Shown here in pieces: positions 3,091 to 31,912 of a stretch of DNA of 64,000 nucleotides. The translations under genes and the position numbers were made by a program. Location of the stretch: sequence record PZ347775.1; one strand, written 5' to 3'. The notes under the pieces are model-generated. The model saw nothing but the letters and a program-made list of their open reading frames with translations, ran no database searches and was not told where the DNA came from. Position 1 is the first letter of the stretch; each line of letters begins with the position of its first letter. This DNA comes from a phage.

Positions 3091-3777
3091 TTAAAAGTCG
3101 TGGGTAGAATCAGCTTCAAGAGCTACTACATAATTCGCATGTTCACCTTCAAATTTAGCAGCGCCTTGTTTACCTTTTGCCCAGAGAAGAAGTTTATAAT
3201 TTCCTGGTTGCATTTTCATATTTGCCATATTGATAATGAAATTAAATGTATTTTCACCATCATAATCACCAAGAGTCAAAGAATATTTAACACGGGTCAA
3301 AGCAGAATCTTCTACTTTGTTAAAACCGTTAATTACAATTTTACCTTCTTTTACTGTGATAGCAATTGTATCAATCTGCAGACCGCGAGATACACGCAAC
3401 AGCTGTTGAAGGTCTTCAGCTTTAATTTCAGTAACAACAGATGCTACCGGGAATGGAATTGGTTTATTAGGAGCAACTACTGTACTCGGATCGGCTGCTG
3501 GCCAAAAAATTGTTGAACGAGCATCAGCAATTTTAATATTACCATCTTCTGACTGGGAAATTTCTGCATCATCATTAACTAGAGACAGAATACCGAGAAA
3601 ACCGTTCAAATCGTAAATCGCTACATCAAAATCAATAGTGTCAGAAATATTTGCTTCTGCATAAGTTGTACCATTAACCGCGCGAGTCATAATAAATTGA
3701 CCGGATTTAAGCATAATACCAGAGTTAATAGTAGCGAAATTTTTAAGCAGAGCAGTAGTATCTTTAGACAGTTTCAT
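3091..3777 (-). CDS. 45: sliding clamp gp45
   Basis: 228 aa, same length and position as T4 gp45. Confidence 0.92.
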   Translation of the reverse strand: MKLSKDTTALLKNFATINSGIMLKSGQFIMTRAVNGTTYAEANISDTIDFDVAIYDLNGFLGILSLVNDDAEISQSEDGNIKIADARSTIFWPAADPSTVVAPNKPIPFPVASVVTEIKAEDLQQLLRVSRGLQIDTIAITVKEGKIVINGFNKVEDSALTRVKYSLTLGDYDGENTFNFIINMANMKMQPGNYKLLLWAKGKQGAAKFEGEHANYVVALEADSTHDF

Positions 3778-3799
3778 GTAATTTCCTTCAATTCAAATG

Positions 3800-3835
3800 A
3801 GATTTAATTTTATAACTAATTTAATAAAGCAATTA
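3800..3835 (-). promoter_or_regulatory. putative MotA-dependent middle promoter for gene 45
   Basis: Minus-strand aTTGCTTTA (MotA-box-like) followed ~10 nt later by TATAAAAT. Confidence 0.4.
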
Positions 3836-4222
3836 ACGATTAAAATCAGCAGCAATTGTTTCCGCAACAATTTGAGCAGCAACAATTAGACGTTCATCTG
3901 CATTACCACAATAATCGTCTTCAAGGCGTTCACCACATGAAGTCATAATAAATTTGGCACCAGCGTTTAGAGATTCTGCCGTATGTTTGCGCATCAGTTC
4001 AATCCATTTATCACTCACTTCACGATCGATAGCTTCATAATACGCATGACGAGCAGGTGCAGATTTAATTTTATTCTGAATAACTTCCATTGCGTTATCA
4101 GAAAGAGACAAAACCCATGCTCGACGAATTTTATTTTGGTTTTGCGGATTTGATTCAGAACGCACGTGTTTTGGCTGAATATCTTTTACATCAACAGTAT
4201 AATTCACAGTAATTTTAGTCAT
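3833..4222 (-). CDS. rpbA: RNA polymerase-binding protein RpbA
   Basis: 129 aa, position between 45 and 46 as in T4. Confidence 0.75.
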
Positions 4223-4231
4223 AATACACCT

Positions 4232-4420
4232 TTAGTCATAATAATCAGTAACAGTCCAAGCTTCATTTCTGTTGGACATTATTTTCGTATATTCTGATTT
4301 AAATGCATTCTTAAGCATAGATTCAGTAACTATATGCTCTTCATTAGAAAAATTATTTCTCAGAATATATCGTTTTATTTCAGGAATAGTTAATAGATGC
4401 TGTCCAGTTGAATATTCCAT
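4232..4420 (-). CDS. hypothetical small protein (T4 45.2 position)
   Basis: 62 aa ORF, tightly packed in operon. Confidence 0.55.
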   Translation of the reverse strand: MEYSTGQHLLTIPEIKRYILRNNFSNEEHIVTESMLKNAFKSEYTKIMSNRNEAWTVTDYYD

Positions 4421-4475
4421 GTTTTTCCTCCATAGAGATTATACTCTAATAAATTAAAGCATAATCTCTTATAAA

Positions 4476-6158
4476 TTAAACCATTACAGTAAACCGACCA
4501 ACTTTCTTCATTTGAAGATGCTGACCATATTCTTGCGGGTCGTGGTCTTTATGCGAAATTATAAAAACATTAGTATTTTTCATTGAATTTATAATATTAG
4601 CTACACCTTTAATACCTTCAGCATCAAATGACCCATCAAACACTTCATCAAGAATTAATGTACTAATACTAACACCAGATACGATAGAAGCAATATCACG
4701 CCAAGTAAATAAAAGAGCAATATCGATTCGTGCTTTTTCACCTTCACTAAATGAAGCATAACTAAAATCTTCACGACCACGGGATTTAATTGTCTCATTA
4801 AATTCTTCATCTAATGTAAACACATAATCCGCTTCCATTATTTTAAGATAATGGTTAATTTGCTTATTAAATAATGGAATGTACTTTTTAATAATAGCAC
4901 CTTTAATACCAGAATCTTTGAGCATGTCAGTCAAAATTCCTCTGTGGTATTTTTCCATTACTAAATTAGTTTTTGTCTTAACAATTTTATCAAGTTCTTC
5001 TTGAAGCAGTGCTATTTCATCAGCATGGTCAATAAACTCGGATGATGCTTTTTCTATAGCTGCTTTAACTTTTTTAGCTTTATCTACAGTCGTGATTAGA
5101 GATTGCTTTTTATTGCGAATATCATTTGCCAACGTCTGCTGGGTTTTAATATTATCTCGGTATTCATCAACAAGAACTTTTAAATTATCACGATGTGTTG
5201 AAAGCTGTTCAAACGAATGCGTGCATTCAGAAACTTTATCTTTAATTTTAGAAACAACTTTATCACCGGAACTTAATTGTGACAAACAGGTTGGACATAA
5301 TCCACCTTCGTGATACATATTAATGACTTTATTATACGAGTCAATTTTTGATTTAATTAAAAATGCTTCTTGACCGATTTTATTAAATGCATCAGTCGGG
5401 TCTTCATCCAAAACAATATTAACTAATCTTTCATTAGCTTCTTCTATTTCCGATTTTAACGTTCTAGCTTCTTTTGCCAAATCATCATACATGTTCTGCA
5501 GACGAGTAAGGTTATCACCAGTTAATTTTTTCTGGCGTTCAACGTTATCATTATATATTTTAATTTGTTGGATAATACTATCTTTTTTAACATCAAGCAC
5601 TTGGTTTTGTGAATTTAATTCACGTATTAGTGCTTTATTAAGCTTATCCATTTCAGCTAATGTTCCTACCTCGAGCAGGTCTTCCACAAGCTTTCTTCGC
5701 GCAGGGGTCGACAAACCCATGAAAGGGGTATACCCTGCTGTACCAAGGACAACAATCTGCTTGAAACTGGCATATGACATTCCGATAAGCTGTTCAAATT
5801 CTGCTTGGAAATCTTTACTGCTGGCAGATTCATTAAGACGTGTACCGTTAACGGTGATTTCGAAAACGTTTGGTTTTTGTCCTCTTTTGATATAGTACTT
5901 TTTCTCATCATATTCCATCCACAGTTCAACTAAAAGTTCTTTCTTATTTGTGCTGTTTATTAATTGACCTTTCTTTACATCACGAAATGGCTTGCCAAAA
6001 AGCCCAAATGTGATGGCTTCTAACATAGTAGACTTACCGCCGCCATTTCGCCCAGTAATAAGAGTTTTTTGAACCTTATCTAGTTGAATGTCAATAGGAT
6101 TTCCACCTACTGACATTATATTTTGATACCTAACTCGGTTTAGTTTAAAATTCTTCAC
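4476..6158 (-). CDS. 46: recombination nuclease ATPase subunit gp46 (Rad50/SbcC-like)
   Basis: 560 aa; N-terminal Walker A GRNGGGKST, long central coiled coil with CPTC zinc hook, C-terminal signature/Walker B (LILDEVFDGS). Confidence 0.92.
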   Translation of the reverse strand: MKNFKLNRVRYQNIMSVGGNPIDIQLDKVQKTLITGRNGGGKSTMLEAITFGLFGKPFRDVKKGQLINSTNKKELLVELWMEYDEKKYYIKRGQKPNVFEITVNGTRLNESASSKDFQAEFEQLIGMSYASFKQIVVLGTAGYTPFMGLSTPARRKLVEDLLEVGTLAEMDKLNKALIRELNSQNQVLDVKKDSIIQQIKIYNDNVERQKKLTGDNLTRLQNMYDDLAKEARTLKSEIEEANERLVNIVLDEDPTDAFNKIGQEAFLIKSKIDSYNKVINMYHEGGLCPTCLSQLSSGDKVVSKIKDKVSECTHSFEQLSTHRDNLKVLVDEYRDNIKTQQTLANDIRNKKQSLITTVDKAKKVKAAIEKASSEFIDHADEIALLQEELDKIVKTKTNLVMEKYHRGILTDMLKDSGIKGAIIKKYIPLFNKQINHYLKIMEADYVFTLDEEFNETIKSRGREDFSYASFSEGEKARIDIALLFTWRDIASIVSGVSISTLILDEVFDGSFDAEGIKGVANIINSMKNTNVFIISHKDHDPQEYGQHLQMKKVGRFTVMV

Positions 6159-6370
6159 AAAAGATTCCTTTTAATGTATCTTTTAGACCATTCTATCATA
6201 TCATCATAATCTAAAAAGTATTCATCAAATTCAGCCATGCAAACAACACCTTGTGCTGCTTTTGATGTGATATAAATTATTCCAACATATCTAGAATCTT
6301 CTTCGGTGTATTCAATATTTGCTATGAATTCATCGTTAATGTCAAATGTCGAAAACTTCACAGTATGCAT
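6155..6370 (-). CDS. hypothetical small protein (46.1 position; likely starts at internal Met of ORF 6155..6418)
   Basis: ORF track; overlaps next ORF unless internal start is used. Confidence 0.45.
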   Translation of the reverse strand: MHTVKFSTFDINDEFIANIEYTEEDSRYVGIIYITSKAAQGVVCMAEFDEYFLDYDDMIEWSKRYIKRNLL

Positions 6371-6605
6371 CCTTAATACAAGATACAGCCATATCTTGTA
6401 ATGATTTAGGTGTGTCATTATCTAAAATGTTGAAGTTAAAAGATACTGCCCAGTCAGTGCAGACCGTGACCTTTTTAATACAATTATCTTCAACCTCTAG
6501 TGGTTCAAACCAATATTCAATAATTTCTTTATGCCCAATATCATCTTTTACTTCGCATTCAAAATGCTGACTCATCATAACATTTTTAAATTCATCAAAA
6601 GTCAT
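6342..6605 (-). CDS. hypothetical small protein (46.2 position)
   Basis: 87 aa ORF whose start overlaps gene 47 stop. Confidence 0.5.
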   Translation of the reverse strand: MTFDEFKNVMMSQHFECEVKDDIGHKEIIEYWFEPLEVEDNCIKKVTVCTDWAVSFNFNILDNDTPKSLQDMAVSCIKDAYCEVFDI

Positions 6606-22463: not shown

Positions 22464-22991
22464 TTATGCGAGTACCGTCTTTAACCGTTCTTCAAACTTC
22501 CGAAGAGTATTTTGGCGTTCAGCTCTTTGCTTTTTGTAAGTTTCAATACGCTCTGAAATGAGAGTGTATCGTTCATTTACTGATTCTTTCATAAAATCAG
22601 GAATTTCACGAGAAGCTTTAATCTCGTCAAATTTATCAATAACAGCTTGCTCTTCAGCAATTAAGTTATCATACATTAAAATATCTTTCTTGATAAACTC
22701 AATATCTTCTTGAGTTACACGAGATAACTTAGATGCTTTATCCTTTTTGTACTGTTCATTAGTATCACGAGACCAATGTAATGTACGATTTTTATTCGTA
22801 TTTTTGTAAATTTCGACAATACCAATCTCATCAATAATAACGATCCAATTCCAACGGGATTTGTAAATTTGTCCTCCATCAACAGTGATTTCACCTCCGA
22901 TTGAGATGTCGTTAAAGAACTTGCTTTGTGCTTCAGATTTAAATTTACCATCATTGTAATTTACCAAGTTGAAAATATCTTTAGCGTTCAT
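22464..22991 (-). CDS. hypothetical protein
   Basis: 175 aa ORF. Confidence 0.5.
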   Translation of the reverse strand: MNAKDIFNLVNYNDGKFKSEAQSKFFNDISIGGEITVDGGQIYKSRWNWIVIIDEIGIVEIYKNTNKNRTLHWSRDTNEQYKKDKASKLSRVTQEDIEFIKKDILMYDNLIAEEQAVIDKFDEIKASREIPDFMKESVNERYTLISERIETYKKQRAERQNTLRKFEERLKTVLA

Positions 22992-23436: not shown

Positions 23437-24156
23437 TTAGGATTCTTCTAAATGTCTTTTCTGAAAAGTTGATACCATACTACGATACGGTTCATTTGGA
23501 TACCCGTGTTTTATAGCTTCCTTTGTAAATTTTCTCCATCCATATTTAGTTTCTTTCCAAAGCTCGAATAATTCATCTTCATATTGCCATATAGTTAAAT
23601 GAGAACGCTTTGCAGCTTTAATTCCATTAATATGCTTTTCTTTTACTACAGGATTACTTAGTTTCTTTTTAATAATATTACTAACTTTTCTAACAAAAAC
23701 TGGGTCCTTATATCGTTGCGAAGTTTTTATTGAAGTGTTTAATTTAGCTTCCGGTGTGGATGTGACCTCTTTCATCTTTTTCTTCATATGCTGTATATGA
23801 TTAGGATTTTTCCATAAATTTATAGAATGCTTTTTGCATTTTATCCTAGTTTCATCTGCAACCTTTCCTCCTTCACCTCCGTATGACAGGTTAACACAGT
23901 TTTTTCCATATTTCAATTTACCTGCCATGATATATAATATTTCAGCTTGTACCATTTTATCATAATTATCAAAAACTTCTAAAACCGTTTTTGTTAATAT
24001 GTGGTCATTTGACACTTTTACACGTTCTATATAATTTCCACTACCAACATACGAATCATTGATGTTATTAGTTATATGTCGACCATAATAGTATTTCTTA
24101 ATACCTGTCTTTAAATTTAATATTTCAGTTTTATAGATAGTAAAATATTTTTTCAT
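23437..24156 (-). CDS. putative free-standing homing endonuclease, GIY-YIG/Seg-like (occupies the T4 mobD position)
   Basis: N-terminal TIYKTEILNLKTGIKKYYYGRH...SYVGSG resembles a divergent GIY-x10-YIG module; Lys-rich C-terminal half resembles the DNA-binding repeats of Seg/I-TevI-type enzymes. Confidence 0.45.
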   Translation of the reverse strand: MKKYFTIYKTEILNLKTGIKKYYYGRHITNNINDSYVGSGNYIERVKVSNDHILTKTVLEVFDNYDKMVQAEILYIMAGKLKYGKNCVNLSYGGEGGKVADETRIKCKKHSINLWKNPNHIQHMKKKMKEVTSTPEAKLNTSIKTSQRYKDPVFVRKVSNIIKKKLSNPVVKEKHINGIKAAKRSHLTIWQYEDELFELWKETKYGWRKFTKEAIKHGYPNEPYRSMVSTFQKRHLEES

Positions 24157-25133
24157 TTTAATAATACCGTTTCAGCAATTTCTTCCCAACCGTTTTTGTC
24201 GGTCATAATAAAGTCAGCAAGATAAAGAGCAGTACGCAGTGAAACATTGCGTAAACGATTAACATTAACTTTCATCCATGATAATGCTTTATAAGTTTCT
24301 TCATCAGAAAGACCGCGCTTTTGCATCATGTCAGTTGAAAGAATAACATCTTCAACCCTGACCATAATTTCTTCATTAGTGTGAACACCCAAATCCAAAT
24401 AAACTGAGCGGGACACCAATGCTTGTAAGTGTGGAGCAAGTTTAGTACCACGGTCTAATTCGCGGTCAATGTCAACGTTTGTGATAAAAACAATCGTTCC
24501 TTTAAATTCAAACTCACGGTCAATGCCTTTTTCTTCTAAGTAAGAAGATGCAGTGCTCCAGCAGACTTTACGGGTCTCTCCAGTGTCCAGAGCAGCTTTT
24601 AGAAGATTAAGAATGTCCATATCAGAGAAAACATCCACATCATCAATCAAAAGGACAGAATTCTCTTCACGATTATTCCAAAGCTGTTCATAAAGACCAA
24701 TACCAGAGATTTTACCATTAATGCTTTTATATTCAATGTATCCATTATCATTTGCTTTATTTAAAGCTTTATCTAAAGAATACGTTTTACCAATACCTGC
24801 TGCGCCAGAGATAATTAATGAACGAATATTTCCATTAATAATACCATTCGTCATCATTCCCATAACATTAAATCTTTTATTAATGCGGGTTTTCATATCT
24901 TCATATGATTCTTTAACTTCTTCAACTTTTACACCATCATATGAAATATCTGATTTGTAAACCCAAACACCGCGACGTTTACCGTCAATTTCAACAAAAA
25001 CTTTACCATCTCCTTGTGCATCTACCGGAGCATTATCTGGGAACCATTCGCCTAAGAGCTCAAAAGTTCCAGAGATTTCTTTACCGAAGTAGATACCCTT
25101 ATTGATAGTTACAGTTTTCATTTTATTCTCCAA
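24153..25133 (-). CDS. P-loop ATPase, AAA+-like
   Basis: Walker A ISGAAGIGKT, Walker B VLLIDDVD, candidate sensor-1 IVFITNVD. Confidence 0.6.
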   Translation of the reverse strand: MENKMKTVTINKGIYFGKEISGTFELLGEWFPDNAPVDAQGDGKVFVEIDGKRRGVWVYKSDISYDGVKVEEVKESYEDMKTRINKRFNVMGMMTNGIINGNIRSLIISGAAGIGKTYSLDKALNKANDNGYIEYKSINGKISGIGLYEQLWNNREENSVLLIDDVDVFSDMDILNLLKAALDTGETRKVCWSTASSYLEEKGIDREFEFKGTIVFITNVDIDRELDRGTKLAPHLQALVSRSVYLDLGVHTNEEIMVRVEDVILSTDMMQKRGLSDEETYKALSWMKVNVNRLRNVSLRTALYLADFIMTDKNGWEEIAETVLLK

Positions 25134-25182
25134 ATCCGTATCAGTTGATAGTTGTATAGTACCATACCCCCTTTGTGTTGAT

Positions 25183-25668
25183 TTATTCCATTTCTACTAT
25201 ATGCATGTTCTTTTTGCTATCAAAATATATGTTTTTAACTATTAACTCAGAATTAATTGGCAGTAAAAACTCTCTTTCATAATCTACCATACAAAGATTA
25301 TCATAAAGCTTGTTAAGCTTATCATCGTCAGTTTGGCCAGATTCTTCAATTGCGATTAAATTTTCTAAAATGTCAATCATAGCAGTCGAATAGTCAAAAA
25401 CGTTTGCATTTTTTAACACTACTAAAACATTAGTCATATAGCGTTCTGCCGCAAACGTTTCAGCTATATGAGACTCACTGCTAAAGGAAGTTATTCTTTT
25501 AAATTTGATTCTCCTATTAACTTCAAACTTATAAGATAACACTTCCTCTATTGTAAGTCCTCTAAAAAGTGTGTCTTTAATCTCAAGTTTGTCTTTAATG
25601 TAATCATTAACACGCTTATGATTAAAATCATTAATTTTGTTGCCAAGGCATTGCATTAAAATATGCAT
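25183..25668 (-). CDS. hypothetical protein
   Basis: 161 aa ORF. Confidence 0.45.
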   Translation of the reverse strand: MHILMQCLGNKINDFNHKRVNDYIKDKLEIKDTLFRGLTIEEVLSYKFEVNRRIKFKRITSFSSESHIAETFAAERYMTNVLVVLKNANVFDYSTAMIDILENLIAIEESGQTDDDKLNKLYDNLCMVDYEREFLLPINSELIVKNIYFDSKKNMHIVEME

Positions 25669-25773
25669 TGTATTCTCCTCAATTTTTAAAGAGCAATTAA
25701 TTAACTACACATATATTATAATATGCTTTGCGATAGAAGTAAACAACTTTGTGACGTCATTTTAAACAAAAAA

Positions 25774-25791
25774 GGGAGCCCGAAGGCTCCC
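25774..25791 (-). terminator. intrinsic terminator after nucleotidyltransferase gene
   Basis: GGGAGCC-UUCG-GGCUCCC followed by UUUUUUG on minus-strand RNA. Confidence 0.6.
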
Positions 25792-25793
25792 TA

Positions 25794-26807
25794 TCATTTA
25801 TAATAACTTCGGTGGTTTTCAAGATAAACCCTCTCAAGGAAGTCATCCCAGAAACCCATGTCTACTTTTTGCTGCATACCGTTCTTAGAAGCTTCAATGG
25901 ATGCTGCTTCTACTTGATCGACCACATCTTCCAAAAACTCTTGAACAGTTTTAAATGGATGCTTACCCAACTTCACGTCGAGAATAAACGGAGCATCTTG
26001 GAGTGGATAAACCAAGTCACCAGTTTTGTAAATTTCCAATAGTTGGAGTCCACCACGACAAGCATGGCTCAAAGCTTTCCAGTCAATGCCCTCATTCGCT
26101 TCAGCTTTACGAGCGCGTTCACCGTATTCGGCATCAAGTTTATTCAAAGACTGCTTAAGCTCAATAAGAGAAAGTGTTGTCTGATATTTACGACCCAACA
26201 CGGTATAGAACGTTTGAGGGCCTGTTTTCTCATGATTATGGAATACCCATTCGCAGAATTCGTTCTCTGGAAGACGATGCTTAATATCTTCAACTTTAGT
26301 GCGACGTTGCTTAATAGAACCATCTTCTTGGTAATCAACCCACTGGTCAGGGATTTGATTAACTACTTTCAATACATCACGTAATGCGGCCAAACGAGAA
26401 CCCTTAACACCATATTTAGAAGCTTGCTTGCGAACATATCCTAAATAGGATTTCATGTTAGTTGTATAAAACCGTGAACGATTGTCTTGAATAAACTTCC
26501 ATACATCAGGCAAATCAGATTTAACTACCAGTTCAGGTGGAGTGTGGAGCATATCCAATGCTACGGTTTCACCATCTGCTGCTAATTTAAAGAAATACTT
26601 AAGACTGTATAGTTCATGGTCAATATCATTTTTAGTGTTTTTAGATGATGTGTTGTTAGTGTTTTTACTCATATGCTCTTTAACATTTCCGATAAGAATA
26701 TCGCGAGCAGGAGGAACAAAGATTTCTTTAAAATCTACATCAGATTCTGGTGTAGAAGTTCCATAAAGATGACTACCAAAATAGCTTTTCATTACTGTTT
26801 TCATCAT
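25794..26807 (-). CDS. putative nucleotidyltransferase (Pol-beta superfamily fold)
   Basis: N-terminal YFGSHLYGTSTPESDVDF (GS-x9-DxD) plus downstream TVALDML third acidic residue; ~200 aa helical C-terminal region. Confidence 0.55.
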   Translation of the reverse strand: MMKTVMKSYFGSHLYGTSTPESDVDFKEIFVPPARDILIGNVKEHMSKNTNNTSSKNTKNDIDHELYSLKYFFKLAADGETVALDMLHTPPELVVKSDLPDVWKFIQDNRSRFYTTNMKSYLGYVRKQASKYGVKGSRLAALRDVLKVVNQIPDQWVDYQEDGSIKQRRTKVEDIKHRLPENEFCEWVFHNHEKTGPQTFYTVLGRKYQTTLSLIELKQSLNKLDAEYGERARKAEANEGIDWKALSHACRGGLQLLEIYKTGDLVYPLQDAPFILDVKLGKHPFKTVQEFLEDVVDQVEAASIEASKNGMQQKVDMGFWDDFLERVYLENHRSYYK

Positions 26808-27265
26808 TCAGCCTTATATTCAATAACAGGACATACTTTAGCTTTACGCGCTTTTAAAAATTCGACGATAATAGATTTCTTTGGTTGAATAGGAGGTAAA
26901 CCTTTATACGCCCTATCAATATTTTCTACATGTAAAGCATAATCCTTTTTCCATTTATAATCTTTATATTTTTCATGCAGTTGTGCAGGAATAACAAATG
27001 AACCGATAATAAGTAAAACAAGCAAAATGGCAAGTATAAATGCCGATGGAATAAGAGTCCATAAACTACCAAAAATAAGCCATTTCTGCATGATTTCTGC
27101 GCAGATGATAGTTAGACCTGCGAGTATAGTACATCCGAAAAAAGAAACAAAAAATGTAGGAATAACAATAGACCAAAAGTATGCACACAGTGTCTTAGGT
27201 CGTTTCCATTCATCATTAAACATTTTGAATAATTTATAGTGCCAAGAGCTTTCATTAATAATCAT
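26804..27265 (-). CDS. membrane protein
   Basis: 153 aa with three or more hydrophobic helices. Confidence 0.5.
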   Translation of the reverse strand: MIINESSWHYKLFKMFNDEWKRPKTLCAYFWSIVIPTFFVSFFGCTILAGLTIICAEIMQKWLIFGSLWTLIPSAFILAILLVLLIIGSFVIPAQLHEKYKDYKWKKDYALHVENIDRAYKGLPPIQPKKSIIVEFLKARKAKVCPVIEYKAE

Positions 27266-27267
27266 AA

Positions 27268-27789
27268 TTATCCTTTCATTGAAGGTGTAACGGTTGTTAA
27301 ATACTTAATCATGGCTTCAGCTTCTGATTTTGATAATGAAATTTCTCCATTGTTTTGACGAATAGAAATAAAATCCGGATGACGGTCACCACCAGCTTTT
27401 AAAACACACATATAAGTATCAGTTTCATCTTCAATATTTGAAATGATTGAAGCAGTTCCGCATGAATGTGGTTTTTGATAAATCAATACAGCTTTTCTTC
27501 CACCGTTTGACTGTTCATAAACTTTTAACACATCAAACAAATCGCTTCTTTTATCAATAGCTAAGATGTTGTTTTCATCTTCAATGTTAAATCCTTCGGA
27601 TACTTCATAAAGTGTCACCCATAAATCGCCAATATCGATAGTAGTATTTTCCTTTCCATGACTTTCAAGAGCGTGACAAATTTTCTTAATTTCGTCATAA
27701 CTCATTTTAACAATATCATCTCCTTGAATAAGGAAGATGTCATTTTTAAATTCAACACGAATTAAACCGCTTTCACTTGAAATAAACAT
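27268..27789 (-). CDS. hypothetical protein, paralog family B member 1
   Basis: 173 aa; GFNIEDE motif and C-terminal SLSKSEAEAMIKYLTTVTPSM shared with next gene. Confidence 0.55.
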   Translation of the reverse strand: MFISSESGLIRVEFKNDIFLIQGDDIVKMSYDEIKKICHALESHGKENTTIDIGDLWVTLYEVSEGFNIEDENNILAIDKRSDLFDVLKVYEQSNGGRKAVLIYQKPHSCGTASIISNIEDETDTYMCVLKAGGDRHPDFISIRQNNGEISLSKSEAEAMIKYLTTVTPSMKG

Positions 27790-27795
27790 ATTTCC

Positions 27796-28362
27796 TCACT
27801 TTGAAATCATAGTTGGAATGACAGAATCAAGATAAGTCTTTAGCGCAATAGCTTCATCTTTGGTAAATGTGACAATATGCGCTCGAAAATCATCAATTTG
27901 ACGAATAGTTAAGACATCTCCTTCTTCATAACATTTTGATACATTTAAAACAGTTTCATCATTCTGATCGCACTGATCGCAAGCGTTAGTAATAATAGCA
28001 TTGCAATTTTTAAGCCATTTTAAACTATGTTTTCTTTCATTAGAATAATAAAAATATTTAATGTAAGTTATAAAATTATCCCAATTATTAATTGATAAGC
28101 ATATTGACTCGCTTTCAATATTAAATCCTGGGCATAAAGAATAAAAATGAATTTTATGCTCATCATTAATGCTTACAATTTTATCGGTGTAAGGTTTTTC
28201 AATTTGGGTTAAATGAATAATTTCGCTAGGCGTAAAATATAGCATATCGTCTTCTTGCGTCAAACGATACATATTATTTACTTTTTCTATAGCCAATTCA
28301 CCAAAAAGTGAACTAACTTCTAGTACTAATCGTTTCATATTGATTCTCTTCGACTCACTCAC
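27796..28362 (-). CDS. hypothetical protein, paralog family B member 2
   Basis: 188 aa; GFNIESE and C-terminal TFTKDEAIALKTYLDSVIPTM. Confidence 0.55.
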   Translation of the reverse strand: MSESKRINMKRLVLEVSSLFGELAIEKVNNMYRLTQEDDMLYFTPSEIIHLTQIEKPYTDKIVSINDEHKIHFYSLCPGFNIESESICLSINNWDNFITYIKYFYYSNERKHSLKWLKNCNAIITNACDQCDQNDETVLNVSKCYEEGDVLTIRQIDDFRAHIVTFTKDEAIALKTYLDSVIPTMISK

Positions 28363-28692
28363 AATTACATACTCCTTTGAATAATATCAATAATATTGTT
28401 CACCAGATTATAAGTAAACATCGGGTGATTATATTGAATCATCACATACACAACAAACAAAACTTTCATTCTCTTCTCCTTGGCAGTTGACAAGATTACT
28501 ATACCATAACCTTGCCAACTTGTAAACTGTTAAATGACGTTTTCAATAAAATTCTGGAGTTTTGTGTGAGCATCAACCATGATTTTCATTTCTTCCTTTG
28601 CGAAAGCTATACCTCTTTCCCGAGAAGAACACTCATAGTCAGAAACTGCATTAGCATATTCTTCAATTAGCTTCATTAAAAACATCTGCTTT

Positions 28693-28923
28693 TCAGTTTT
28701 CATTATTCCACCTAATCATTTCAAGATATTGAACTAACTTAGCTTTGGATTTATCTAAATCCTTTTTAGCTGCTTCTATACCGTCGTATGAATATCCTTC
28801 ACAATGCTCAACTGCTAATTGATATGAATCTATTTCAATATCACGTGCTAATTTAATGATTTTTTCAAACTGTTCGCCTGTCAGCATACTAAACTCTCGT
28901 ATTGTGATCGATAATTTCATCAA
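28693..28923 (-). CDS. hypothetical small protein
   Basis: 76 aa ORF. Confidence 0.4.
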   Translation of the reverse strand: MMKLSITIREFSMLTGEQFEKIIKLARDIEIDSYQLAVEHCEGYSYDGIEAAKKDLDKSKAKLVQYLEMIRWNNEN

Positions 28924-29107
28924 GAAACATATCTAAAGCTTCTAAAGCATTATCAACTTTAGCTTCAAATTCTTCAATACCTGATAAGGCAAAGTTAATG
29001 CGTTCCTCATCTGCTTTGCGAATTAAAGCTACCAATTCTTTAATTTTATCTGCTTGTTCGATACTAATCATTATTCCACCACATATGAAAGAGAGAATAT
29101 TGCACAC
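28889..29107 (-). CDS. hypothetical small acidic protein
   Basis: 72 aa ORF. Confidence 0.4.
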
Positions 29108-29304
29108 GCCATATGAGTTGCAGCTTCATCACACATACTATAGCGTTTCTTAAGAAGTTCTACAAGTTCTTCACTAGTAACTTCATCCATGTCGACGAAA
29201 AAATCACCATTAATGATGACGTAGATATTTCCTTCTTGATTAAGTGCTTCAATTTTCATGATGTTCTCCTCTTTATCCGATGGTTGTATAGTATCACAGC
29301 TCAA
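29071..29304 (-). CDS. hypothetical small acidic protein
   Basis: 77 aa ORF. Confidence 0.4.
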
Positions 29305-29332
29305 ATGGAAAGTAAACCGGTAAAATGAAAAA

Positions 29333-29350
29333 AGTCTCCCGAAGGAGACT
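29333..29350 (-). terminator. intrinsic terminator after rI operon
   Basis: AGUCUCC-UUCG-GGAGACU followed by U-run. Confidence 0.6.
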
Positions 29351-29354
29351 AATG

Positions 29355-29741
29355 TTATTCGAGGGAAAGAAGATACTTACTCTGGTAAAACATTCCAGTA
29401 ATATCATCTATCGTGCTTTGAATGGCTGGAGGCATTTCTTTATAAATGCTGTTAGATTGGTCTAGTATACGATCAATCATTTTAATTGTGTCGGTAGGAA
29501 GTTTACTAGCATCTGGAATTGAAGGCGTGTATTTTCTACCAGAATACCCCAAATACTGCTCACCAAATTTGTCAATCAAATCTGGCAACTCAGAGAAAAT
29601 AAAATCGTATGCTTTGTGTCTAGCATAACTTTTAGTTTCAAAATGCGCAGAATGAAAATAAGCTTGTGCAGCCATTAATAAACCTAAGTATTCATCTGCC
29701 TTTGAAGGTTTTCCACTTTGTGAAAAGTCGCTGAATTTCAT
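29355..29741 (-). CDS. hypothetical protein (rI.-1 position)
   Basis: 128 aa ORF immediately upstream of rI, followed by hairpin terminator. Confidence 0.5.
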
Positions 29742-30031
29742 TCAGTCTCCAATTTAATGTTCATAATTCTAGCGTATGATTGTGCCATCTCCGCGCCTCG
29801 CTCTATACATTCAAAATCAGAAGAGCACGGGTCATTTTTATAGGTCGTTCTCATAAAACTATAAAATCGTTCAGACGATTCTACGCTTTTATTTTCAAAA
29901 AGTGTATAAACGTGCCTAATACCAGATTCCATAAATTTATCAAAATGAGGATCGACGTTCGCTTCAATCGGCGGAGATAAAACAAACGCTAATCCTAGCA
30001 TGGCGAATAATGCCGCTGCTTTTAAGGCCAT
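29738..30031 (-). CDS. rI: lysis-inhibition regulator RI
   Basis: 97 aa with N-terminal signal-anchor MALKAAALFAMLGLAFVLSPPIEA and periplasmic domain; matches T4 RI in length and position. Confidence 0.8.
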   Translation of the reverse strand: MALKAAALFAMLGLAFVLSPPIEANVDPHFDKFMESGIRHVYTLFENKSVESSERFYSFMRTTYKNDPCSSDFECIERGAEMAQSYARIMNIKLETE

Positions 30032-30298: not shown

Positions 30299-30880
30299 CT
30301 AACCAAGCTTTTTAGTTAATTCATTCCAATGTTTTCTACACAAAGAAACATAAATTTCATCACCAATACAGATTTGATTACCTTCTTTAACTGGTGTTCC
30401 ATCTTCCATTAATCGAGCTGTCATAATCGCTTTTTTACCACAATGACAAACTGCTTTTAGTTCAATAAGTTTATCTGCAATCGCCAAAAGTTCTTTAGAA
30501 CCTTCAAATAATTTTCCAGCGAAATCAGTCCTTAGACCATAAGCCATAACAGGAACATTATATGTATCGACAATTCGGCTTAATTGATGTACCTGTTCAG
30601 TTTTTAAAAACTGGGCTTCATCTACAAATACGCAATGAATATCTTTTTGTGCTTCAGCCCATTTATAGAACTCAAAAATATCCATATCATCCGTAATAAT
30701 ATTCGCTTCCTGCTTAATTCCAATGCGAGAAACGACTTCACAGACAGAATCGCGAGTATCAATAGCAGGCTTAAGAACTAATACACTCATTCCACGTTCT
30801 TTATAATTATGTGCAGCAGTCAAAAGAGAAGCAGATTTTCCAGCATTCATTGCTGCATAAGTAAAAATTAAACTCGCCAT
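30299..30880 (-). CDS. tk: thymidine kinase
   Basis: 193 aa; P-loop AAMNAGKS, zinc-ribbon cysteines (CHCG...CRKH) typical of type II TK. Confidence 0.9.
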   Translation of the reverse strand: MASLIFTYAAMNAGKSASLLTAAHNYKERGMSVLVLKPAIDTRDSVCEVVSRIGIKQEANIITDDMDIFEFYKWAEAQKDIHCVFVDEAQFLKTEQVHQLSRIVDTYNVPVMAYGLRTDFAGKLFEGSKELLAIADKLIELKAVCHCGKKAIMTARLMEDGTPVKEGNQICIGDEIYVSLCRKHWNELTKKLG

Positions 30881-31273: not shown

Positions 31274-31461
31274 TATTCTTCTACATGTTGTTTACGACCT
31301 TTCTTATCAATAAAGGTATATTCAACGAATGTTCCGATGTAGTCTTTATCTACATCATGTAGACTATTAATTGGGCATTTAGTACGGCAAATGCGTTCCC
31401 ATTGACGAATAATTTCCACTTTATTTTTAGGGTCAAACGGATGTGGGTAATGTGCTTTCAT
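31249..31461 (-). CDS. hypothetical small protein (tk.3 position)
   Basis: 70 aa ORF. Confidence 0.4.
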   Translation of the reverse strand: MKAHYPHPFDPKNKVEIIRQWERICRTKCPINSLHDVDKDYIGTFVEYTFIDKKGRKQHVEEYCLKVTWL

Positions 31462-31912
31462 AATCCACCACTATTAAATCAATATCAGGAGTAAACATGT
31501 CGATTAATTTAGAAACCTTATCCCAATCACCGCCAGCAATACCACAACCTATGCGTGGAATGTAAATTACTGGTTTAAACAAAAGGGTTTCTGCCTGTAG
31601 ATTTAATTCTATCATGCAATTTACTAAAGCACCATAATCAAGATTAGGACCCGGTTCGTATTGCGTATACAGGTTATAGCATATACCAAATCCCGTAGGA
31701 CTATGCTTAAAAACAATAGACATATCGCCTAATTTATCACGAGAACCGTATTCGGTAGTGGTTTTATCTATTTCTAAAATTTTGGGATAGGCTCTTGCTA
31801 ATTGACCCGCTACGCCAGAGCCCATTGTGTGGAAGCAATTGCATCCGTGCGCAATAATATTACCTTGAAGAAATAGGGCGACAATATCGCCCTTGATATA
31901 TTTTACAATCAT
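31433..31912 (-). CDS. macro-domain-like protein (putative ADP-ribose binding/hydrolysing)
   Basis: HGCNCFHTMGSGVAGQLARAYP and PRIGCGIAGGDW resemble the two glycine-rich ADP-ribose-binding loops of macro domains. Confidence 0.55.
   Translation of the reverse strand: MIVKYIKGDIVALFLQGNIIAHGCNCFHTMGSGVAGQLARAYPKILEIDKTTTEYGSRDKLGDMSIVFKHSPTGFGICYNLYTQYEPGPNLDYGALVNCMIELNLQAETLLFKPVIYIPRIGCGIAGGDWDKVSKLIDMFTPDIDLIVVDYESTLPTSV

Follow-up and report, generated by a model that had tools for sequence, protein, structure and literature searches.

About 130 of the nearly 300 genes of bacteriophage T4 are still uncharacterised, and the MobD.1 family is catalogued in Pfam and PHROG but equally uncharacterised; we found no functional study in the literature on mobD.1/y05I, on Pfam PF24449/PF24448, on nrdC.10 or on nrdC.11. 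T4 MobD.1 combines a PF24449 with a PF24448 domain and belongs to PHROG 1502. T4 possesses a single copy of this gene, followed by mobD, whereas most Tequatroviruses have a second copy and a membrane-protein gene at that place. This is also the case in the stretch of phage DNA analysed here, a window of 64,000 nucleotides (nt) from sequence record PZ347775.1, in which the region between positions 27,268 and 28,362 encodes a MobD.1 protein of 188 amino acids (aa) and a 173-aa paralogue, hereafter p173. For this pair we propose a structural and genomic hypothesis, in which both proteins are acidic, have a predicted Pur-alpha-like architecture and may act as dimerising partners of the membrane protein encoded directly downstream.

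Several well-described systems provide a frame for this comparison. In Pur-alpha (3k44, 5fgp, 5fgo, 8cht), repeats I and II bind nucleic acid and repeat III is responsible for dimerisation. The first two repeats pair within the chain and the third between chains, making Pur-alpha the only protein known to combine a type I with a type II (intermolecular) PC4-like domain (PMC7549692). The phage family is likewise modelled with three repeats, but it shares no significant sequence similarity with Pur-alpha, its N-terminal domain is acidic, its repeat III is modelled with five strands, and phages encode it in linkage with a membrane-protein gene. Whirly proteins, MRP1-MRP2 and PC4 are basic binders of single-stranded DNA (ssDNA) or RNA that form tetramers, and no sequence relationship to the phage family was found for them. 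Finally, SsgB, an SsgA-like protein of actinomycetes (3cm1), is an acidic Whirly-fold protein placed by the membrane protein SepG. It too is unrelated in sequence, forms a trimer and works in another biological context; any analogy would be functional only.

The window comes from a T4-like phage, a Tequatrovirus, of which it is the early accessory region on the minus strand. With Escherichia phage W143 the 1.9 kb around the pair share 97.7% identity, and T-even records matching this segment number over 500. The features of the pair and of the adjoining membrane-protein gene are as follows.

27796–28362, minus strand: MobD.1 orthologue, an acidic protein with three predicted PUR/PC4-like repeats; 188 aa from a GTG start, 180 aa from the ATG at 28338.
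28039–28329, minus strand: MobD.1 N-terminal domain (PF24449), residues 12–108, repeats I and II, with GFNIESE at 28108–28128.
27808–28026, minus strand: MobD.1 C-terminal domain (PF24448), residues 113–185, repeat III, with the helix TFTKDEAIALKTYLDSVIPTM at 27808–27870.
27268–27789, minus strand: p173, the second paralogue, 173 aa from an ATG start, with the same two domains; it corresponds to bas37_0208 of phage Bas37.
27505–27786, minus strand: p173 N-terminal domain (PF24449), residues 2–95, with GFNIEDE at 27574–27594.
27277–27486, minus strand: p173 C-terminal domain (PF24448), residues 102–171, repeat III, with the helix SLSKSEAEAMIKYLTTVTPSM at 27277–27339.
26804–27265, minus strand: membrane protein, 153 aa, starting 2 nt past the p173 stop; matches phrog_944 'membrane protein' (E 1.2e-49).

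A first-pass annotation of this DNA had proposed a tandem paralogue pair on the basis of the shared GFNIE[DS]E motif and the similar C-terminal segments, to be abandoned if the likeness ended at the short C-terminal motif. Both reading frames and both shared elements are present, and the relationship is stronger than was claimed. In BLASTP, MobD.1 and p173 align over 178 columns with 28% identity and 50% positives (E 7e-11; residues 3–171 of p173 against 16–185 of MobD.1), and in a phmmer search of the 226 open reading frames (ORFs) of at least 50 aa in the window, each protein matches only its partner (E 5e-8 and 1e-8). Both carry the same two Pfam domains, p173 scoring 110.7 bits (E 5.8e-32) for PF24449 (T4_y05I_N) and 84.0 bits (E 9.8e-24) for PF24448 (T4_y05I_C), and MobD.1 137.3 and 82.5 bits, against gathering cut-offs of 24.9 and 27 bits, respectively. 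Both also match phrog_1502 over their full length. Because BLASTP, phmmer, the two Pfam domains and phrog_1502 agree, the similarity is real and extends along the whole proteins, which are genuine full-length paralogues of the T4 MobD.1 family. T4 MobD.1 (NP_049711) has its orthologue in the 188-aa protein, which is 85% identical to it and occupies the same place after mobD.2. Domain hidden Markov models (HMMs) run over all six frames detected neither a third paralogue nor a stand-alone C-domain gene in the window.

Two observations support the GTG start of the 188-aa frame: an AAGGAG lies 9 nt upstream, and in alignment with T4 the GTG coincides with the start annotated for mobD.1, immediately behind the mobD.2 stop; many database records begin MobD.1 eight codons later, at the 180-aa ATG. 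The ATG of p173 lies 6 nt past the MobD.1 stop, with GAGGAAAT in front of it. A zinc site formed by the Cys and His residues of the C-terminal domain (CDQC in MobD.1; HSC...C...H in p173) was considered and dropped, as these residues are not conserved across the family. Database labels of the orthologues are heterogeneous. The name 'molybdopterin-guanine dinucleotide biosynthesis protein MobD' is in wide use for MobD.1 and MobD.4 orthologues (NC_054910.1, NC_054925.1; T4 mobD.4 in NC_000866); it is simply wrong and reflects a confusion of gene symbols, T4 mobD being a mobile HNH endonuclease; 'virion structural protein' and 'prohead core scaffold protein' also occur as stray labels.

The MobD.1 structure was modelled with AlphaFold2 using 31 diverse sequences, including remote members recovered by a search of cluster representatives (predicted local distance difference test, pLDDT, 85.9; predicted template modelling score 0.61). 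The same procedure applied to p173 with a six-sequence alignment gave a pLDDT of 44, and that model was not used. In the MobD.1 model, three beta-beta-beta-beta(-beta)-alpha units follow each other at residues 1–45, 53–100 and 103–173 of the 180-aa form. The first two make up the N-terminal domain, where two four-stranded sheets on one chain are each followed by a helix (pLDDT 89–95), as in a type I PC4-like domain. About 100 residues of this domain align to the two-repeat structures 3k44, 2gia, 1l3a and 3n1h. The structural-match figures are 8.7 for MRP2, 8.3 for Whirly PBF-2, 8.0 for StWhy2, 7.1 for SsgB, 6.9 for Pur-alpha repeat III, 5.9 for Borrelia Pur-alpha and about 5.3 for PC4/Sub1. 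Repeats I and II are predicted to pack on each other as a Pur-alpha/Whirly-type domain, and we regard this fold class as established as a prediction. Foldseek returned no match in the PDB at E up to 0.001 and, in BFVD, only family members and unnamed proteins. Searches of all PDB chains with the sequences and with family profiles found nothing, Pur-alpha chains included; Pfam PurA gave no match at E up to 0.1, and there was no sequence match to the Whirly or PC4 families.

Repeat III is modelled without an intramolecular partner. It is homologous to repeat I (hhalign probability 88.9%, E 2.4e-6), and therefore a MobD.1-type protein arose by internal repetition, like Pur-alpha. Conservation within the family is highest in this repeat, including its C-terminal helix (consensus TK.EA.AL..YL.SVIPTM), where the invariant positions cluster, and the repeat also exists on its own in proteins of about 75 aa. 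Compared by hhalign with five PUR repeats, the human sequence being verified against 8cht, repeat III aligns in register but not significantly (E 0.0039, probability 8.6%). At least at the level of the model, the three-repeat layout of the MobD.1 family is that of Pur-alpha.

The pair does adjoin a membrane-protein gene, as the first-pass annotation had seen, and this proved to be its most informative feature; only the direction had been reversed, since on the minus strand the paralogues lie upstream, in transcription, of the membrane-protein and nucleotidyltransferase genes. Hydropathy and charge indicate that the 153-aa protein has a basic N-terminus, a hairpin of two transmembrane (TM) segments (about residues 27–56 and 66–95) and a basic 60-aa C-terminal tail with 14 K+R against 8 D+E. 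Its homologues in other genera are 30–38% identical and keep the N- and C-terminal motifs, the two-TM hairpin and the basic ends, which are predicted to be cytoplasmic and which, judged from sequence, are complementary in charge to the acidic soluble paralogues. To see how constant the arrangement is, 22 loci were scanned with HMMs, a non-exhaustive sample of annotated phages of five genera and 15 IMG/VR contigs that includes T4. In each of the 21 non-T4 loci (Tequatro-, Mosig-, Dhaka- and Gelderlandvirus, Klebsiella phages and the IMG/VR contigs), a gene encoding repeat III is directly followed, in the same orientation, by a homologue of the membrane-protein gene, with a gap of at most 10 nt or an overlap. 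Karamvirus shows the same adjacency, bringing the total to 22 of 22 non-T4 loci, which represent six named Tevenvirinae genera as well as unclassified Klebsiella-phage and IMG/VR contigs, as does Yersinia phage fHe-Yen9-01 by its coordinates; T4, with no membrane gene beside MobD.1, is the exception. The flanks vary, with differing small ORFs upstream of the two genes. Salmonella phage SEA1 (L004 in our numbering of loci) contains the two-gene unit twice, at 3501–4460 and 5763–6487, and locus L018 contains it without the nucleotidyltransferase or rI.-1. In an Aeromonas phage (Emmerichvirinae) the membrane homologue is present and the gene upstream of it is not recognisably of the MobD.1 family. 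We interpret the gene for the repeat-III protein and that for the two-TM membrane protein as a conserved cassette of two genes. Separately, the C-terminus of one SEA1 membrane protein (L004 3957–4460; …AFYQLKYLLTLE) resembles that of rI.-1 (phmmer E 3e-7), which suggests a common C-terminal module.

Taken together, the explanation that we favour, while holding it at slightly less than an even chance, is that MobD.1 and p173 are dimerising, protein-binding partners of the membrane protein within an early accessory cassette. By analogy with Pur-alpha, repeat III would pair with a second repeat III through the conserved C-terminal helix, giving homodimers and possibly MobD.1:p173 heterodimers. 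The proteins would act with the two-TM protein encoded directly downstream, which has basic cytoplasmic tails, and their ligand would be a protein, namely the membrane partner, a host factor or both. The family would in this respect resemble the acidic SsgB as positioned by SepG.

The nature of the ligand is where this explanation meets its most serious competitor, in which the pair are ssDNA- or RNA-binding regulators, a dimeric Pur-alpha-like protein that binds or unwinds phage or host nucleic acid early in infection. We consider it unlikely, though it deserves real weight, since the best structural matches (Pur-alpha, MRP1/2, Whirly, PC4) are all ssDNA or RNA binders, the three-repeat architecture equals that of Pur-alpha, expression is of the early type with an RlaP-type nucleotidyltransferase as neighbour, repeat III falls in register with the PUR repeats, albeit not significantly, and the Pfam name 'putative transcription factor' implies such a role. 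Against it stands the charge of the family, which is uniformly acidic: the isoelectric point (pI) is 4.2–5.8 in 30 of 31 members, with net charges from -1 to -20, and that of p173 is 4.76. For the N-terminal domains the values are 4.91 (MobD.1) and 4.44 (p173), compared with 9.36 and 9.39 for PUR I-II of human and fly, so that neither has the basic character of its Pur-alpha counterpart. Conservation falls on Q, N, E, D and hydrophobic residues (LTQEDD in repeat I, GFNIE.E in repeat II, IRQ.DD in repeat III); apart from the K in the TK.EA helix cap, no basic residue is close to invariant, and none is conserved in the N-domain strands. Sequence searches, as described above, link the family to none of PurA, Whirly or PC4, and the matches further include SsgB, DUF4176 chaperones and CdiI, where the same fold binds proteins. 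Because the family is acidic and has no conserved basic residues on its sheets, a protein is more likely to be the ligand than ssDNA or RNA. The same uniform acidity argues against the Pfam label, which appears weakly founded.

Several points nevertheless weigh against protein-binding partners of the membrane protein. The PC4-like fold is overwhelmingly tied to nucleic-acid binding (PMC7549692), and a protein that is acidic overall may still have a local basic patch. Conserved adjacency could stem from co-regulation instead of physical interaction. T4 retains MobD.1 without the membrane gene or p173, so that MobD.1 can persist alone, and three host comparisons for Bas37 gave no phenotype (10.1101/2025.11.20.689424).

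The cassette lies in a longer series of minus-strand genes that runs, in order of transcription, from tk (30299–30880) through rI.1, rI, rI.-1 and the small mobD.5 to mobD.2 ORFs to MobD.1, p173, the membrane protein, the NrdC.11 nucleotidyltransferase, a 161-aa ORF and NrdC.10. The elements that may delimit transcription around the pair are the following.

28498–28526, minus strand: candidate sigma-70-type (T4 early-like) promoter, TTTACA-17-TATAGT with an upstream TG, identified by consensus match only.
28365–28493, minus strand: small ORF, orthologue of mobD.2, with a probable ATG start at 28468 (34 aa) and a stop 2 nt before the MobD.1 start.
25794–26807, minus strand: NrdC.11 nucleotidyltransferase, 337 aa, whose start overlaps the stop of the membrane-protein gene (ATGA).
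25773–25792, minus strand: intrinsic-terminator-like hairpin directly after nrdC.11, with an 8 bp stem including 6 GC pairs, then TTTTTTG.

The promoter candidate has the joint top score (10/12) in a scan of positions 25000–30000 and sits downstream of a terminator-like hairpin (29333–29350) that follows rI.-1. The mobD.2 ORF is near-identical to T4 mobD.2 and occupies the equivalent position, and the 337-aa protein is the orthologue of T4 nrdC.11 (Pfam RlaP E 1.1e-10, phrog_388 E 2e-136). The hairpin after nrdC.11 is probably the 3' end of the transcription unit, and between it and the promoter candidate the reading frames abut or overlap, an arrangement consistent with one early unit composed of mobD.2, MobD.1, p173, the membrane protein, NrdC.11 and the terminator.

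This organisation raises a second alternative, that the pair works with NrdC.11 in an RNA-repair or nucleotide-modification pathway by presenting its substrate, the membrane protein being incidental. The shared operon with its overlapping or abutting frames speaks for it, as do the match of NrdC.11 to Pfam RlaP ('RNA repair pathway DNA polymerase beta family') and the fact that 19 of the 21 scanned non-T4 loci have a nucleotidyltransferase downstream. Yet the spacing between the membrane gene and the nucleotidyltransferase varies (0–2 ORFs, or a gap that reaches about 1.2 kb), whereas the adjacency of the membrane gene to the repeat-III gene is invariant. The nucleotidyltransferase is absent from L018 and was not detected within the examined stretch of SEA1 L004; T4 keeps it together with MobD.1, but with mobD in between; and in phage T2 it is intact while both paralogues are broken. 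We therefore judge this pathway improbable, and partnership with the membrane protein remains the explanation that we prefer.

The distribution of the genes bears on how long they have been kept. In T4, p173 is absent, the HNH homing endonuclease mobD replacing both p173 and the membrane gene, and this layout is in the minority, with mobD found at 95% identity or more in 47 records. By comparison, p173 occurs at 80% aa identity or more in 434 phage records, MobD.1-type proteins in 730 records and the membrane protein in 922 phage records; in megablast, both paralogue genes are covered in 367 of 492 records. A single MobD.1-like gene, with the membrane gene and then the nucleotidyltransferase after it, is present in Mosigvirus RB69 and Dhakavirus UP19. 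The family is nonetheless small, with 27 cluster representatives at E up to 1e-3 among 1.8 billion proteins. In a neighbour-joining tree, rooted at the midpoint only, the p173 clade, to which a 55%-identical variant from a metagenomic contig (P0010) belongs, lies outside all MobD.1 types, and the 27–28% identity between MobD.1 and p173 is below that of MobD.1 orthologues of different genera among themselves. As p173 branches outside every MobD.1 type, the duplication appears to be old, unless p173 has diverged fast, and we take it to be ancient and not recent. Next to some MobD.1-like genes, in Dhakavirus-type and Klebsiella-phage loci, a small ORF of 60–95 aa stands directly upstream (L003 3164–3436; L005 3314–3505; L016, L017, L019–L022) and gives weak N-domain HMM matches (E 1e-4 to 4e-6); these ORFs may be additional single-repeat paralogues in tandem.

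Recombination has also left traces. Some Tequatroviruses (e.g. EO1, Sf22) carry a second MobD.1 allele that is 67% identical to the RB69 protein, about 47–49% identical to the MobD.1 of the window and 46–48% to the T4 type. Its last 27 residues are nevertheless identical to those of the window protein, which therefore indicates recombination within the MobD.1 gene. Among metagenomic sequences, P0011 (six contigs) is a natural chimera of a MobD.1 N-terminus and a p173 C-terminus, and in P0028 a MobD.1 N-terminus is joined to the C-terminal part of NrdC.11; each implies a deletion through recombination inside the operon. In T2 (L025, PV958097.1, 1770–2870) MobD.1 and p173 have two frameshifts each, with the membrane gene and the nucleotidyltransferase intact downstream, and a second T2 record, MH751506, likewise annotates the paralogues as fragments. 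The second allele and the chimeras support modularity and 'hot' recombination, yet each paralogue is otherwise strongly conserved. Identities of at least 80%, and mostly at least 90%, maintained by each copy over hundreds of genomes are the mark of two genes that have been retained, each under its own constraint. The idea of a hotspot for gene diversification, raised in the first-pass annotation, thus holds for the plasticity of the locus, with its mobD swap, second allele, chimeras and T2 frameshifts, but not for the duplication itself, which is not recent.

Published data show that neither the paralogues nor the membrane-protein gene are required for growth in the laboratory. In the HIDEN-SEQ data, T4 mobD.1 received transposon insertions at 58 of 59 TA sites (10.1101/2025.11.20.689424). 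In the corresponding Bas37 data of the same source, bas37_0207 (462 nt), bas37_0208 (522 nt) and bas37_0209 (534 nt), which we assigned to the window genes by size and position, Bas37 having the window arrangement, are listed as non-essential and show no significant change in three host comparisons (adjusted p = 1 each). The T4 block from nrdC.11 to mobD.3 is, moreover, deletable (PMC9825161). Because of the transposon data, the T4 block deletion and the T2 frameshifts, we conclude that the paralogues are accessory and dispensable in standard laboratory hosts.

Dispensability opens a further alternative, to which we give little credit: that the genes have no current function and are carried along neutrally in a hyperplastic region, on their way to being lost. 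It would account for their non-essentiality in T4 and Bas37, for the two pseudogenes of T2, for the missing p173 of T4 and for the truncated and chimeric forms in databases. It does not sit well with intact full-length copies at 80–99% aa identity in more than 400 genomes each, with a family whose members can be recognised in at least four to six Tevenvirinae genera, their motifs and membrane-gene linkage conserved, or with paralogues that are distinct at 28% identity without decay. As for a similarity due to chance or composition between ORFs that are not real genes, the low overall identity of the two proteins is its sole support, and it is refuted by the BLASTP E-value of 7e-11, Pfam E-values of 1e-23 to 1e-40, hundreds of conserved orthologues annotated as coding sequences and a confident structure model.

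The analysis provides MobD.1 and its paralogue, so far a pair of 'hypothetical proteins', with a predicted fold, an arrangement in repeats, a module that is likely to oligomerise and, in the adjacent membrane protein, a specific candidate partner, and it turns the pair into a two-component hypothesis that can be tested. Should they prove to be acidic PUR-fold protein binders, they would be a phage example among the few uses of this fold other than nucleic-acid binding. A bolder proposal, which we put forward as speculation and consider doubtful, is that the acidic Pur-alpha-like (type I + II) dimer and the two-TM protein form an unrecognised two-component accessory module of Tevenvirinae, a membrane-anchored protein-binding or nucleic-acid-mimicking device serving host takeover, superinfection exclusion or counter-defence, with the tandem duplication into MobD.1 and p173, possibly as heterodimers, broadening its targets. 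On this view the family would be just the second protein class, Pur-alpha being the first, to combine both types of PC4-like domain.

The surroundings of the pair lend some interest to such a role. According to the HIDEN-SEQ source (10.1101/2025.11.20.689424), the macrodomain protein Tk.4/AdfM counters DarTG2 and NrdC.1 counters Septu, both being encoded in the early accessory block, and bas37_0203, at the nrdC.8 position, inhibits Druantia type III (log2 fold change -5.8 on strain CFE303). Given these counter-defence neighbours, an accessory host-interaction role for MobD.1 and p173 is plausible but unproven; neither they nor the membrane protein matched any profile in PADLOC (defence/anti-defence) or NCBIfam. 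We considered whether bas37_0203 itself could be MobD.1 or p173 and rejected this, its coordinates and size being those of an nrdC.8 orthologue. It measures 528 nt and corresponds in position and size, the grounds on which orthology was assigned, to a 175-aa ORF of the window (22464–22991, minus strand) that has the position and size of nrdC.8.

Further minus-strand ORFs lie around the cassette. The 161-aa ORF between nrdC.11 and nrdC.10 (25183–25668) matches the C-terminal part of phrog_832 'RNA polymerase ADP-ribosylase' (E 7e-24) and no Pfam family, and T4 has no gene at the equivalent position. Between nrdC.10 and nrdC.9, a 239-aa ORF (23437–24156), whose stop overlaps the start of the next gene, has no Pfam match and is missing from T4 at that place. 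At the Tk.4 position, a 159-aa ORF (31433–31912) is 98% identical to the same-sized bas42_0228 of BASEL phage Bas42.

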